Assembly: GCA_000224765.2 (NCBI GenBank)
Contig: AGAU01000412.1
Coordinates: 2,529 to 66,528, forward strand
Reading direction: 5' to 3'
Length of the DNA stretch: 64,000 nucleotides
DNA from: SAR324 cluster bacterium JCVI-SC AAA005
Lineage (GTDB): Bacteria > SAR324 > NAC60-12
A model generated the notes under the pieces. The model saw only the letters and a list, made by a program, of their open reading frames with translations. It ran no database searches and had not been told where the DNA came from. Made by a program: the position numbers and the translations under genes. Shown one piece after another: positions 15,195-50,131 of this stretch (position 1 is its first letter; every line of letters begins with the position of its first letter).

Positions 15195-16163
15195 TTACAA
15201 ACGGAAGCGTGACAAAAAATTCCAAATCAGCTCATTGGTCCCAAAGCCTGCAACTTGAAGATCGAACCAAACGTGTTCTCCACCAATCACTTGGTAATGC
15301 TGTACCTCAACACCTTCTTGTCCCCCAGCATAAACAAAGGAATGTACCGTCTGTCCGCTGCTTATCGTTGTTTCCTCAGTGGGCGAGGATTGGGTCCGAT
15401 TAAAATCAACCCAATATTCAATCACACCTTCCGCAGACACAGAACCACTCGAATCTCCTTTTGGATTAGAGACATTGTCTGATGTGTAGTAGGGCAAGAT
15501 ATAATCTTGGGTTCCATGCAACGTAATAACAGCAGTTGGCTGAGGCGGCTGGCATAGATTACCGATGTCGGTCAGCATAGTTCCAGACACAGAACCGACC
15601 GCAGCAATCCGTTCTCCACGATAGCAAGCAAGGCCAAAAGCGAGCATGGCGCCATTCGAATATCCGACAGCATAAACACGTTTTTCATCGATTCGGTAGT
15701 TCGCGCTCAGGTTGTCAACTAACGACTCGATGAATCCGAAGTCGTCCACCGTACTTTTGTTGGTTGCAGATGGTGGAGACGGGTTCCAGTGAGGAGAACC
15801 ATCGAACAAGGATCCTTGGGGGTAAGCAAGCAGGAAGATTTGCTCTTCTGCAAGTTGGCGAAAGTCGCTCGTCAACAAATGGTTGGCGGCAGAGCCTCCA
15901 TATCCATGGAAGTTTAGTAGTAGCGGAATAGCTTCTGTTCCCTCGGAGGACTTCGGCAAGTAAACCAGAGCTTCTCGGAGGACACCATCATGGTTCAATT
16001 CCAGCCATGTGGTATCTGGAATGTTGATATTTGAGGAATCTTTTAGATCTATTTCTGAGGAATCTTTTGAAACGCTACAGCCCCAGAGTTGAAGACAAAC
16101 AAGTAGGGCAGTCAAAATTTTGATAAAATTTCTCTCGAAAGATCGAATTATGGAGTATTTCAT
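15195..16163 (-). CDS. secreted esterase, PHB-depolymerase/CE1-type alpha/beta hydrolase (lipoprotein)
   Basis: Motifs LLLNFHGYGGSA, DDFGFIESL and nucleophile elbow GYSNGAM, with lipobox LQLWGC. I prefer ATG at 16161-16163 (MKYSII...), which forms an ATGA overlap with the stop of the upstream MBL gene. The track ORF extends to 16181. Confidence 0.75.
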   Translation of the reverse strand: MKYSIIRSFERNFIKILTALLVCLQLWGCSVSKDSSEIDLKDSSNINIPDTTWLELNHDGVLREALVYLPKSSEGTEAIPLLLNFHGYGGSAANHLLTSDFRQLAEEQIFLLAYPQGSLFDGSPHWNPSPPSATNKSTVDDFGFIESLVDNLSANYRIDEKRVYAVGYSNGAMLAFGLACYRGERIAAVGSVSGTMLTDIGNLCQPPQPTAVITLHGTQDYILPYYTSDNVSNPKGDSSGSVSAEGVIEYWVDFNRTQSSPTEETTISSGQTVHSFVYAGGQEGVEVQHYQVIGGEHVWFDLQVAGFGTNELIWNFLSRFRL

Positions 16164-16888
16164 TCCGTTAGAGTTTTGCACAATTCTCTGAGCAGAGACG
16201 CGCCATCACCGCTCCAAGCACTACCATGCATACATGCGAAGGTCGTGGGATTTGTAGACGCCAATTTTTCAATCAGCATAGCTGTATTTTTTGTGTAGGA
16301 GAAATCGTCCATTGCCTGACGAAACGCTTGGCTAGGTCCAAGAATGTCTGACTCTGTGAGTGGGGAATCACCGATACCTCCCTGTGTGAAAAGATCACCA
16401 CACAATAGCGTCTTTGTAGTTTGCTCTGAAAGAAAGCCACAATCCTAGCCGTGAGGTAGGTGTGGAGTGTCGTGCCATTGTAGAGAATGAGATCCTAGTG
16501 ATAGAACTTCACCATCGGCCAAGGCTCTAGGTGGCCGGTCTGCAATGTCCTGTACAGAAACCATTGCGGCTACGACACTACAAACAGGCTCAGCTTGGGG
16601 TGCCACTGCAAGCCACTCATTCAGGGAGCCACACCCATCTGCTTCCACATGTGAGATCGCAACATAACGGATCTTCTCAACCAGCATTACACTAGCTACC
16701 GCCTCTTTCACTAGTGGAAACATTTTTCGCAAACCTGTATGGAACAACAATGGTTCATCATCTCTAACCAGATACTGGTTGAAAGAAAATTTATTCCCTT
16801 CACCAAGATCAACAGGAGTATTAATTCTATAAATACCGTCGGCAATTTTGTGAATATTTGTGCAAGATTCCTGGTTGGTAACGGTCAT
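16160..16888 (-). pseudogene. MBL-fold metallo-hydrolase interrupted by one in-frame TAG
   Basis: Track ORFs 16445-16888 and 16160-16405 are in the same frame. Translation reads ...HDTPHLPHG*DCGFLSEQTTKTLLCGDLFTQGG..., a continuous MBL-type protein (ISHVEADGCG metal motif) with TAG at 16445-16447. Confidence 0.7.
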
Positions 16889-17043
16889 TATTCATCCAAA
16901 AAAGTAGTTTAAACTACTTTGCAAAAAACTCTATATCGATGAACATTAAACAAGCCACATCCTCATTATTAGTTTATTGAAAAGAAGAGATGATTTGCGG
17001 TTATTTTGCTTTGCTGATTTGTTACAGTTTATCAAACTGTTGG

Positions 17044-17319
17044 CTATGAGATTTTATCCATGGAATAGATCGTATCGACAATGTTGTACTTGGCATCAAC
17101 TTCAGCGGCTTCAGGTGACGACATCATGGCTGTAAACATTTCCATATCTGTTACATTCATCAATCCAACTGCCTTGTGATCATTGATCTTGGCAATCTCC
17201 CATTCAGAAACACATTTTTGCATTTCTCCCTCAAATTCACCGAGCATCGCTTTAAATTCTTCGAACGAACAATTAATTTGTACACTGAATAACCACCTCC
17301 GAAACCTGAGAGACACCAA
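17044..17319 (-). CDS. hypothetical protein
   Basis: 91-aa ORF. The true start may be the internal ATG at 17247 (MLGEFEGEMQKC...). No family recognised. Confidence 0.35.
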   Translation of the reverse strand: MVSLRFRRWLFSVQINCSFEEFKAMLGEFEGEMQKCVSEWEIAKINDHKAVGLMNVTDMEMFTAMMSSPEAAEVDAKYNIVDTIYSMDKIS

Positions 17320-17320
17320 T

Positions 17321-48400: not shown

Positions 48401-48538
48401 TAGTGGCTATACAAATAAAAGATTTAACCCACTGAAGTCAATCGTTTCCACTCTGCCTTACACTCATGATACTTGATTCATAGAGCTAAGAATGGGAAGA
48501 ATTATCTCTGCTCAACAACGCTTTACCTATACATAAAA

Positions 48539-49435
48539 ATGAAGGAACAGATTCAAGAGTTGCTAAACGACCTTCGCTCCTGGCGCTTCTGGCACACCTT
48601 ACTGATGATGGTAATCGGCTGTACCATCTTTGGTGCTGTCGTTAACGCAATTCTCGTCTCCCAGAATTATTTCGCAGGGGGTGCAACTGGGCTAGCCCTG
48701 CTGATTTATTCGCTTACTGACCAAATATCTTTGGGAATTCTATATGCCTTGATCAACATTCCAATCTTCATTGTTGGCTTCCGAGAGTTTTCCCTGCGCT
48801 ATATCGTCCTGAGTCTCTGCGGAATGTTGATCTACTCTCTGGCCCTAGAGTGGGTTCATGTCCCCATTGAAGCGAAGGACCCCCTGACGGCTGCAATCTT
48901 GGCAGGTGTTCTGAGCGGGATAGGAGCCGGACTCTATTTGCGACTTGGTGGGTCAATTGGAGGAATGGATATTCTTGGCACTGTTCTGAAAAAACGTTTC
49001 GCTATTCCAATTGGTACAACCTTCAATGTAATCAATCTAACTGTCCTGAGCACCAATGCAGTGCTCTACAATCTGGACATTGCACTCTACACCGGAATTT
49101 ACATGTTTGTATTTTCCTGGGTCATGCAGCGAGTGCTGACGGGTTTTTCACAGCGCAAATCTATCTTCATCATCACAGAACATCCTGAAGAGGTTGTGCA
49201 CCAAGCCATTCGAAAAATTGACCGAGGAGCCACCTACTTTCTAGCTGAGGGATCTCATCTTCACACTCCGAAAAGAGTTGTTTACACTGTAATCAACTTA
49301 TTGGAACTTGGGCGTCTCAAGCAACACCTCTTCGAAACAGATCCCGATGCCTTCATTGTGGTGAACGATACTGCAGAAGTGATTGGAACTCGCTTCCTTA
49401 CCTGGGAAGATGAGGGTTTCAAACGTCGTCCTTAA
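48539..49435 (+). CDS. YitT-family membrane protein (DUF2179 C-terminal domain)
   Basis: Start chosen at MKEQIQELL (ATG 48539). It has 5-6 TM helices, then a soluble C-terminal domain (FIITEHPEEVVHQAIRKIDRGATYFLAEGS...VVNDTAEVIGTRF) typical of YitT/DUF2179. Confidence 0.8.
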   Translation: MKEQIQELLNDLRSWRFWHTLLMMVIGCTIFGAVVNAILVSQNYFAGGATGLALLIYSLTDQISLGILYALINIPIFIVGFREFSLRYIVLSLCGMLIYSLALEWVHVPIEAKDPLTAAILAGVLSGIGAGLYLRLGGSIGGMDILGTVLKKRFAIPIGTTFNVINLTVLSTNAVLYNLDIALYTGIYMFVFSWVMQRVLTGFSQRKSIFIITEHPEEVVHQAIRKIDRGATYFLAEGSHLHTPKRVVYTVINLLELGRLKQHLFETDPDAFIVVNDTAEVIGTRFLTWEDEGFKRRP

Positions 49436-49439
49436 AGGA

Positions 49440-50131
49440 CACCACCAATTACAATACTCTAATAAGTAGCCTGCCACCCACATCTCAAATAGAATAAAAT
49501 GGCTAAAATCGTTAAAGATCTGGCCACTCATGTTCCGATTTAGCCACCTGCCAATCAATACACCTGTCAGAATCACTAGCATCAGCCACAAAGAGATCTG
49601 ATCACCTCTCCTGAAGATACCGGTTTCCATGTAGAAAGGGGTTTTAGCGATACTGATTATAAAAAATAGACGCTCAACGTACCAACAAATGCTTACCAAA
49701 CTAGACTATTAGATAATAGAAGGATCTGGGCAGGAACCCCACCAGAAGGTTATCCAAAACTGGAAACCCCCGACAATGCCAAACCAGAGAAACTTTCTTT
49801 GCCATATTCTCTGTGTTACCGGTGCAGCAATCTCGACCGAAACACGCTTACCCAGTCGTATTCGCCAGCCATAGTTCATCTTCGTGATAATGGCAATCAG
49901 TCCAAAACCATACATAATCATCAGAACTCGACGATTTAACATATGGCGCCAAATGTACTTTATCCGTACATCTGTAATCAAAAACAAAGAGCAGCAGCAT
50001 CAAACTAAGGGCCCCTAAAGTCTCCCAAAGCCAGACTTGGAGATGGTCACCGCTAGTACCCCCAGTCCAGCTATCACCAAAAAGAAAAATGTTGAGGATG
50101 CTAAAATCTCAATATCATCAGTAGAGGTCAT
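49440..50131 (-). pseudogene. probable TauE/SafE-type membrane transporter, fragmented
   Basis: ATG at 50129-50131 gives MTSTDDIEILASSTFFFLVIAGLGVLAVTISKSGFGRL* (TAG at 50015-50017). A shifted frame continues ETLGALSLMLLLFVF. Track ORFs 49709-49987 and 49298-49699 supply further hydrophobic pieces in other frames. The SKxGFG motif and total length (~230 aa) suggest TauE/SafE. This is a recollection-based call. Confidence 0.4.

Follow-up and report, generated by a model that had tools for sequence, protein, structure and literature searches.

The window analysed here, a stretch of 64,000 nt from SAR324 cluster bacterium JCVI-SC AAA005 (contig AGAU01000412.1, positions 2,529 to 66,528), contains broken genes for an MBL-fold protein, an SDR, an esterase, a PhnY-type aldehyde dehydrogenase, a sigma-54 activator, two cytochromes and a TauE-like transporter. 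All of these had been listed as decayed in the original prediction, and all are broken relative to intact syntenic orthologues; an AT-rich relic on the same list could be tied to no gene. Lesions were compared across the syntenic orthologues of the same-genus genomes G001 and G003-G008, sister genomes that were binned from metagenomes and in some cases contain numerous ambiguous bases. The studied assembly itself comprises 646 contigs and 4.26 Mb, and is 76% complete. For 7 of 7 genes, one to five congeners carry a full-length syntenic orthologue that has the Pfam domains expected, and in 7 of 7 the disabling lesion lies inside the conserved part.

The MBL-fold gene (Pfam ODP / Lactamase_B; 16163-16888, minus strand) carries one in-frame TAG (16445-16447, codon 148), which is the sole lesion in the gene and, among the genomes compared, is seen in the studied assembly only. 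This codon is TGG in G005 and G007, in both of which the gene is intact, and encodes W in 6 of 6 wider homologues. A few conserved residues have also been replaced in this genome alone (G9C and E85G), and the private changes of the gene, few in number, are distributed 5/3/11 over the codon positions. In G004 the gene has suffered a 64-bp deletion, in G001 a 700-bp deletion leaving the last 47 codons, and from G003 it is absent through a 2.3-kb deletion.

The SDR, esterase and phnY genes bear independent lesions inside 2 kb, flanked by clean phnA and phnW genes that are 98% identical to those of G004 and kept under purifying selection. The SDR gene (adh_short_C2; 24795-25516, minus strand) is frameshifted by the loss of one nucleotide from a homopolymer, which reads A6 at 25104-25109 and A7 in G001, G003, G004 and G006, bearing out the single-nucleotide indel previously proposed for this run. 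A deletion of 981 bp, bordered by AATGAAG direct repeats (7-bp microhomology) and joined at 25848|25849, took about 250 codons of the Abhydrolase_3 esterase and cut the final 56 codons from the phnY aldehyde dehydrogenase; every relative covering this point has some 980 bp extra. Both the SDR A6 and the 981-bp deletion are seen in the studied assembly only. The esterase persists as a C-terminal stump of about 70 codons (25646-25855, minus strand), with a TAA at 25757-25759 derived from GAA and a 3-nt deletion after 25671; G001, G003, G005 and G006 carry the whole gene (320 aa), and G004 has a nearly complete, stop-free copy (residues 9-320). The PhnY-type aldehyde dehydrogenase (Aldedh) pseudogene (25849-27103, minus strand) combines a 2-nt deletion after 26673 with the 3' truncation left by the 981-bp deletion, in agreement with the indel and truncation originally described. 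The 2-nt deletion is identical in G006, and phnY of G005 has separate lesions of its own (two nonsense codons and one frameshift). The SDR and phnY pseudogenes are too young for their codon-position pattern to be informative. The window thus encodes a phosphonate route without its middle enzyme, and PhnX, which could have stood in for the inactive phnY, was absent in 5 of 5 genomes searched.

Older remnants are found on both sides of the cytochrome genes. A GAF/sigma-54-interaction/HTH_8 activator gene reduced to its final ~123 codons (29621-29989, minus strand), a stump interrupted by a TAA at 29918-29920, is present with the same TAA in G004, G005 and G007, and is therefore common to four species; an intact gene of 512 aa occurs in G003 alone. 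Similarly, a TauE/SafE sulfite-exporter-family pseudogene (49481-50131, minus strand) contains several stops, deletions and frameshifts. Its orthologue is intact (266 aa) in G003, G005 and G007, as well as in G008, and two of its small deletions are common to G004, where a further 437 bp is gone.

The two cytochrome genes are adjacent. The cytochrome c' (Cytochrom_C_2) pseudogene (40858-41287, plus strand) has TAG at 40906 from TGG, TAG at 40939 from CGG and TAA at 41120 from TGG, with 2 nt gained after 40850 and 8 nt lost after 41074. The dihaem cytochrome c pseudogene (41248-42191, plus strand) has TAG at 41694 from CAG, TAG at 41979 from TGG, a TGG>TTG change at 41527 and single-nucleotide insertions after 41585 and 41669. 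Over 1.35 kb the pair holds 5 stops and 4 indels, one of the four indels falling in a short T run. Private substitutions are near-uniform over the codon positions in cytochrome c' (7.8/8.9/12.7%) and reach 7.2/6.0/15.0% in the dihaem cytochrome, the position 2 rate of the latter (6.0%) comparing with 0.2-3% in intact neighbours. Both cytochrome genes have undergone long neutral evolution.

An AT-rich island of 5.4 kb (42965-48395) with a DUF6641 gene, proteorhodopsin and a PhyH-like gene separates the cytochrome pseudogenes from the TauE pseudogene and forms part of the context, not being itself a lesion; the alignments of G003, G005, G007 and G008 skip it, passing from 42964 to 48396. An AT-rich ORF-less stretch at 46853-48470 (~29% GC) is the relic mentioned above. 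It gave zero Pfam matches in six frames at E<=0.1 and no match in a plasmid search, and, being tied to no gene, was rejected as a decayed gene.

The genome-wide load was estimated by a home-made census, run without calibration on curated genomes, in which ORFs of at least 150 aa were searched by tblastn and passed through a synteny filter, the sister samples being 0.74 Mb from G005 and 0.36 Mb from G004. Broken syntenic ORFs numbered 26 of 328 (7.9%) in the studied genome versus 11 of 325 (3.4%) in G005 (p=0.017), and 12 genes versus 1 had multiple lesions; set against G004, the counts were 8/175 (4.6%) and 5/173, respectively, so that the pseudogene fraction stays below 10% in either comparison. 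An unfiltered first census had yielded 7.6% versus 5.9% in G005, and the two-fold difference became visible because the synteny filter took out paralogue and IS hits; metagenome bins may nevertheless under-represent the variable regions that bear pseudogenes, in which case the apparent two-fold excess over the sister would be inflated. Counting one large Pfam family (PF00005) was rejected as a census, its best 150 matches being intact copies and silent on broken ones. The unusually high pseudogene density claimed earlier for the window is thus shared by the genome as a whole when compared with G005; the window (4/40) is typical of its genome and, with a load spread genome-wide, is no chance cluster. 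Lesion rates depend on identity, from 32% at 70-80% identity to 0.9% at 90-95% (0.9-5% at >=90%), and half of the broken genes in the genome sample have at least two lesions. Nine annotated broken genes are all accessory, comprising PUFA-synthase-like genes, transporter parts, an amidohydrolase, Sir2, a nitrilase and one gene without Pfam match.

Taken together, the window probably represents the dispensable, variably present genes of a free-living marine SAR324-like genome ('Deltaproteobacteria'), seven of which have become unitary pseudogenes of mixed age through ordinary mutation. The sigma-54, TauE and phnY 2-nt lesions are shared with sisters, and the MBL stop, the SDR indel and the 981-bp deletion are young; the same genes have been lost independently in sisters, and several lesions are older than the studied lineage. 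Each gene would have been knocked out by spontaneous mutation, either GC>AT changes (TGG, CAG or CGG to stop), small indels or, in one case, the microhomology-flanked deletion of 981 bp, and would have drifted neutrally once disabled. Within the window, the failure of a first gene may have left its partners valueless, so that they decayed too (SDR-esterase-phnY; cytochrome c'-dihaem cytochrome); we hold this unit-wise decay to the window only, since the genome sample contained no adjacent pairs of broken genes, versus 1.7 expected.

The broken genes are ordinary decay, the frequency of which exceeds that of sister genomes only modestly. Kuo and Ochman are said to have described, in PLoS Genetics in 2010, a rapid turnover of bacterial pseudogenes, with young strain-specific ones and few old ones. 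The young private lesions of the window (MBL, SDR, 981-bp deletion), found beside remnants that sisters delete stepwise (MBL, TauE, sigma-54), resemble such a turnover, whereas several remnants, e.g. the sigma-54 stump in four species, outlast species splits. In prokaryotes the pseudogene background is 1-5%, with means of 3.3-3.9%, and accessory or horizontally acquired genes are over-represented in it (Liu, Harrison, Kunin and Gerstein 2004, PMC522871). As in the free-living part of that background, single-copy accessory genes have here been disabled by nonsense, frameshift and deletion, beside an AT-rich island, and the load of ~8% (0.9-5% in well-conserved genes) is near it, although somewhat above it and roughly double the load of one sister, figures that are not strictly comparable given the different methods (PMC522871). 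The substitutions follow the universal GC>AT mutational bias of bacteria (Hershberg and Petrov 2010, PMC2936535), with GC>AT:AT>GC ratios of 64:30 in the cytochrome pseudogenes and 128:82 on the recent branch, no lineage-specific feature being present since the sisters are alike. For annotation purposes, the seven window genes should be called pseudogenes, and a load of ~8% is a warning that gene-content inference in this uncultured marine group needs a check of gene integrity.

The same accessory genes have been hit independently, phnY and MBL/ODP having been knocked out separately across sisters, and the losses may hence be selected and go beyond drift; taken with the roughly two-fold load relative to G005, they could point to a continuing, Black-Queen-like loss of certain functions, driven by selection, in a free-living planktonic lineage. 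We regard such selection as a minor possibility. The repeated loss of phnY and MBL/ODP is itself a modest lead on functions dispensable in the open ocean.

Reductive genome evolution is characteristic of host-restricted bacteria such as Mycobacterium leprae, Sodalis and Shigella, and the window resembles them in the inactivation of several respiratory and catabolic genes, some with multiple lesions. The original prediction invoked a lineage under relaxed selection and AT-biased mutation, with recent niche restriction, small population size or host association eroding many genes, a scenario that we consider improbable. It is favoured by the excess of broken and multi-lesion genes over G005 (26/328 versus 11/325 and 12 versus 1), by a lower ORF coverage (0.83 versus 0.87 in G004 and 0.90 in G005) and by a GC content ~2 points below that of the sister samples. 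However, constraint on intact genes is normal, the (pos1+pos2)/pos3 ratio being 0.47-0.54 compared with 0.39-0.56 in G001 and 0.45-0.46 in G005 (Fisher p 0.86 and 0.25). Both the branch spectrum and the codon-position shares match those of G004 and G006, recent GC>AT:AT>GC substitutions numbering 128:82 here and 94:66 and 192:102 on sister branches; the AT-biased mutation proposed earlier is therefore real in the pseudogenes, but the spectrum does not set this lineage apart. Relative to G004, GC/AT substitutions are nearly balanced (2115:2004), which attributes the lower GC to extra AT-rich islands; indeed, 8.5% of 5-kb windows fall below 38% GC, as opposed to 0-4.7% in sisters. The excess of lesions over G004 is small (8/175 against 5/173). 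The assembly is among the two largest of the genus (G005: 4.4 Mb, 99%), and the first once scaled for completeness, and repeats (>=90% identity, >=500 bp) make up 0.03% of the DNA without any IS bloom, a figure to be read in the knowledge that drafts collapse repeats. Furthermore, identity to the sisters is mosaic, a sign of recombination, and the named relatives are ocean metagenome bins. A load of 8% lies far under the 36.5% of M. leprae, and Neisseria and Rickettsia conorii, at 10-12%, exceed it as well (PMC522871). This planktonic genome hence differs from host-restricted ones in its far lower pseudogene fraction and in the lack of IS expansion, of shrinkage and of a raised replacement rate in intact genes. 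Normal selection on intact genes, a sister-like spectrum, a large assembly and relatives from ocean bins leave host restriction or niche collapse unsupported. Selection has therefore been relaxed on particular dispensable genes, in partial agreement with the earlier claim, and there is no lineage-wide sign of small population, host association or niche restriction.

It is unlikely that the private lesions, perhaps along with others, are consensus errors or chimeric joins arising in amplification or assembly, the true genome having fewer pseudogenes. The draft is fragmented (646 contigs, 76% complete), the SDR lesion alters the length of a homopolymer, the 981-bp deletion with its 7-bp microhomology resembles template-switch chimeras, and these two lesions and the MBL TAG are known from the studied assembly alone and could have arisen in this way; genome-wide, three broken genes with 96-97% identity to G005 have one lesion each. 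Against such an origin, lesions of phnY, TauE and the sigma-54 activator reappear in assemblies made independently, multiple lesions go together with neutral substitution patterns in the cytochrome and TauE genes, and lesion frequency is strongly tied to gene divergence. Homopolymer differences from G004 are symmetric (~10 shorter and 7 longer, in runs >=5), and among the nine small indels of the window only that of the SDR gene falls in a long homopolymer. The separate lesioning of SDR, esterase and phnY within 2 kb between clean phnA and phnW genes, as well as the loss of the MBL gene in three sisters by three other routes, are likewise at odds with artefact, and the MBL TAG and the SDR A7>A6 change would probably be real mutations rather than consensus errors.

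That TAG (and TAA) codons standing in for Trp are translated as Trp, or else bypassed by readthrough, leaving some genes functional, is scarcely credible: four stops do fall exactly on conserved Trp codons, in the MBL gene as its single lesion, but three of the four lie in genes also holding frameshifts and other stops, no tRNA with a CUA or UUA anticodon was found by ARAGORN in the whole assembly (32 tRNAs in an incomplete assembly, tRNA-Sec, UCA, being the sole stop-reading one), TAG and TAA normally terminate 422 (16%) and 936 (36%) of 2585 long ORFs, and Trp is replaced at only 1 of 34 in-frame stops in the genome-wide sample. An ORF of 104 codons at 10305-10616, with a TAG at a Trp position common to G001, was left uncounted as an unconvincing sequence outside the family scans.

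The stops predicted at Trp codons in the MBL, dihaem cytochrome and cytochrome c' genes were all correct, and a fourth occurs at 40906, so that TGG is replaced in 4 of the 7 in-frame stops of the window. Their recurrence is within expectation, and the special pattern once seen in it disappears: given the genome's own transition bias, 20-22% of nonsense mutations should affect Trp, and pooling the genome sample with the window gives 5/41. There is no special Trp effect or recoding. The proposed source, G-to-A transitions in TGG, stands as a product of ordinary GC>AT mutation, to which 6 of 6 polarisable stops are due. Trp recurs because TGG is among the few codons made stop by one transition, and stops clustered on Trp need no special cause when TGG, CAG and CGA all become stop codons by single transitions.

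The window appears to carry ordinary pseudogenes that differ in age and lie in an accessory segment of fast turnover. It corresponds to C235:2529-66528 of a draft assembly (G000; 4.26 Mb in 646 contigs, 43.3% GC, completeness rated 75.8%). The same-genus comparison set comprised eight genomes, and the syntenic regions of seven congeners were aligned to the window; G007 is a metagenome bin from the ocean ('Deltaproteobacteria bacterium CPC61') and other congeners are Tara-type ocean bins, a hit labelled SAR324 being more distant. Lesions were detected by placing the relatives' ORFs on the window by tblastn, and families were assigned by scanning intact proteins of the relatives with Pfam or, for MBL, the window's own protein. 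Many ambiguous bases, appearing as X in translations, occur in the assemblies of G004 (L098-L101) and G007 (L093) and in L001, so that the first two are of limited use as lesion-calling references.

The original prediction counted at least eight decayed genes. Seven are confirmed among about 63 window loci, and the family names proposed all agree with Pfam (adh_short_C2, Abhydrolase_3, Aldedh, GAF+Sigma54_activat+HTH_8, Cytochrom_C_2, Cytochrom_C and TauE), the MBL protein matching ODP/Lactamase_B; the AT-rich 'relic' at 46853-48470 gave no family match in any frame searched and was therefore left out of the count. The MBL/ODP gene (16163-16888, minus strand) carries a single TAG (16445-16447); the codon is TGG in G005 and G007, and W occupies this position in six wider homologues. 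The SDR gene has A6 at 25104-25109 vs A7 in four relatives. A 981-bp deletion between AATGAAG repeats (junction 25848/25849) took out most of the esterase gene and, from phnY, the final 56 codons. In what is left of the esterase, GAA has become TAA at 25757 and 3 nt are deleted; phnY, besides its 3' loss, has a 2-nt deletion after 26673. The terminal ~123 codons are left of the sigma-54 activator, with a TAA at 29918. Cytochrome c' combines three nonsense changes (TGG>TAG at 40906, CGG>TAG at 40939, TGG>TAA at 41120) with indels of +2 nt after 40850 and -8 nt after 41074, while the dihaem cytochrome c has CAG>TAG at 41694, TGG>TAG at 41979, TGG>TTG at 41527 and insertions of 1 nt after 41585 and after 41669. 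The TauE gene (49481-50131, minus strand) is full of stops, deletions and frameshifts. These pseudogenes very probably arose through point mutations with the usual GC>AT bias, through small indels and through one deletion at microhomology. A 104-codon ORF at 10305-10616 (minus strand), open in G005 and G007, has its TGG at 10464 replaced by TAG both in the window and in G001; lying outside the family scans run, it may be no gene.

Indirect evidence strongly argues that most of these lesions are real. The 2-nt deletion in phnY is identical in an independent genome, G006; two small deletions in TauE are common to the window and G004, which has since lost 437 bp more; and the sigma-54 stump with its TAA is common to the window, G004, G005 and G007. 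The cytochrome pair holds nine lesions in 1.35 kb, and its window-private substitutions are spread near-evenly over codon positions (7.8/8.9/12.7% in cytochrome c', 7.2/6.0/15.0% in the dihaem cytochrome c); in intact neighbours the rates are 0.2-3% (position 2) and 8-17% (position 3). Three lesions, namely the 981-bp deletion, the TAG in MBL and the homopolymer change in SDR, occur in this assembly alone and are probably real; the genes that bear them are plainly dispensable. SDR, esterase and phnY carry independent lesions inside 2 kb, and the flanking phnA and phnW are clean. Gene content changes at a hot spot, 29531-30559, which spans ~1 kb in the window, ~6 kb in G001 (L096:11662-17678) and only ~0.2 kb in G008, where even the sigma-54 stump is lacking.

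The most interesting residue of the analysis is the independent knockout of the same genes across sister lineages, which could reflect selected loss. In the region 25849-29513, phnY was broken twice independently, by the 2-nt deletion common to the window and G006 and by two nonsense codons and a frameshift in G005 (L103:8691-10128). phnW and phnA are intact and constrained; PhnX (TIGR01422) was not found in G000, G001, G004, G005 or G006, so that no middle step of the 2-AEP route is obvious in them. Likewise, intact copies of MBL/ODP occur in G005 and G007 alone, the gene having been lost in four ways: it has the TAG here, G004 has deleted 64 bp and G001 700 bp, and G003 lacks it.

Pseudogene load was assessed by a census that covered 0.74 Mb of G005, a genome 99% complete, and 0.36 Mb of G004; complete ORFs from one genome, 150 aa or longer, were searched by tblastn on the other in both directions, synteny being demanded and stops near the start or end disregarded. 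Against G005, 26/328 ORFs (7.9%) were broken in G000 and 11/325 (3.4%) in G005 (Fisher p=0.017), with 12 genes vs 1 carrying at least two lesions; against the much closer G004 the counts were 8/175 in G000 and 5/173 in G004. Published backgrounds are 1-5%, with means of 3.3-3.9%, and the fraction in M. leprae is 36.5% (PMC522871). The load of G000 is thus modestly raised, at roughly 8% or about twice that of G005, an excess that may be partly due to comparing a single genome with consensus bins. By the same measure 4/40 window ORFs are broken, which matches the rest of the genome (p=0.54), so that the window is no chance cluster. Breakage is far more frequent in diverged genes (32% broken at 70-80% identity vs 0.9-5% at identities of at least 90%), and the nine annotated broken genes are all accessory (PUFA-synthase-like pfaA/C/D, a solute-binding protein, a permease, an amidohydrolase, Sir2, a nitrilase and one without Pfam match), a pattern that argues against random error. 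The three PUFA-synthase-like genes, of KS-AT-ACP, KS-FabA and enoyl-reductase type (C637:1292-5436, C637:8161-13292 and C603:8200-9809), are each two frames in G000 and a single ORF in G005, and the whole lipid pathway may be inactive in G000.

A lineage under relaxed selection with AT-biased mutation, through niche restriction, small population or host association, was the original explanation of this decay and is not supported, as substitution spectrum, constraint on intact genes, composition, and genome size and density all stand against it, as do two more observations, the mosaic of identities to sisters and an island with a proteorhodopsin gene. Polarised with outgroups, GC>AT vs AT>GC changes number 128:82 on the G000 branch, 94:66 on that of G004 and 192:102 on that of G006, with an equal third-position share (50-52%) on all three. 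The private (pos1+pos2)/pos3 ratio of intact genes is 0.47-0.54 in G000, 0.39-0.56 in G001 and 0.45-0.46 in G005. Over 237 kb aligned to G004, sites with AT in G000 and GC in G004 number 2115 vs 2004 for the reverse. GC content is 2 points lower in G000 because of extra AT-rich islands (5-kb windows below 38% GC make up 8.5% vs 0-4.7% in sisters); metagenome bins tend to lose such islands. ORF coverage is 0.83 vs 0.87-0.90 in sisters. G000 is one of the two largest assemblies of the genus, and the largest after scaling for completeness, and its repeated DNA amounts to 0.03%. Identity to G004 and G005 is a mosaic, as expected of a recombining free-living population: across 14457-22965, DNA identity to G004 is ~83% up to ~18154 and ~97% from 18307, and that to G005 passes from 89.5% to 96% at 18062, a pattern suggestive of homologous recombination among the genus's species. 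One 5.4-kb AT-rich island (42965-48395) holds a DUF6641 gene, a proteorhodopsin, a PhyH-like gene and 1.6 kb without ORFs; it is missing from G003, G005, G007 and G008, whose alignments skip from 42964 to 48396, and G004 spans at least its right end, from 47707.

The three stops said to replace conserved Trp were all correctly identified, and a fourth was found, so that 4/7 window stops replace TGG (uncorrected probability ~0.04). Given the codon usage of G000, the observed transition bias (kappa ~4.8) and the GC>AT bias, the expected shares of nonsense mutations are 20-22% for Trp and 31-35% for Gln. In-frame stops in the genome-wide sample replace Trp in 1/34 cases and Gln in 10/34, and the pooled Trp count of 5/41 fits expectation; the recurrence at Trp is ordinary transition mutation seen in a small sample. 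Neither an amber nor an ochre suppressor tRNA was found in G000, where TAG terminates 16% and TAA 36% of long ORFs. As ARAGORN identified a tRNA-Sec (UCA), selenocysteine may be encoded by some of the TGA codons that lie in frame, and these are not to be scored as lesions; the tRNAs identified in G000 number only 32, consistent with 76% completeness.
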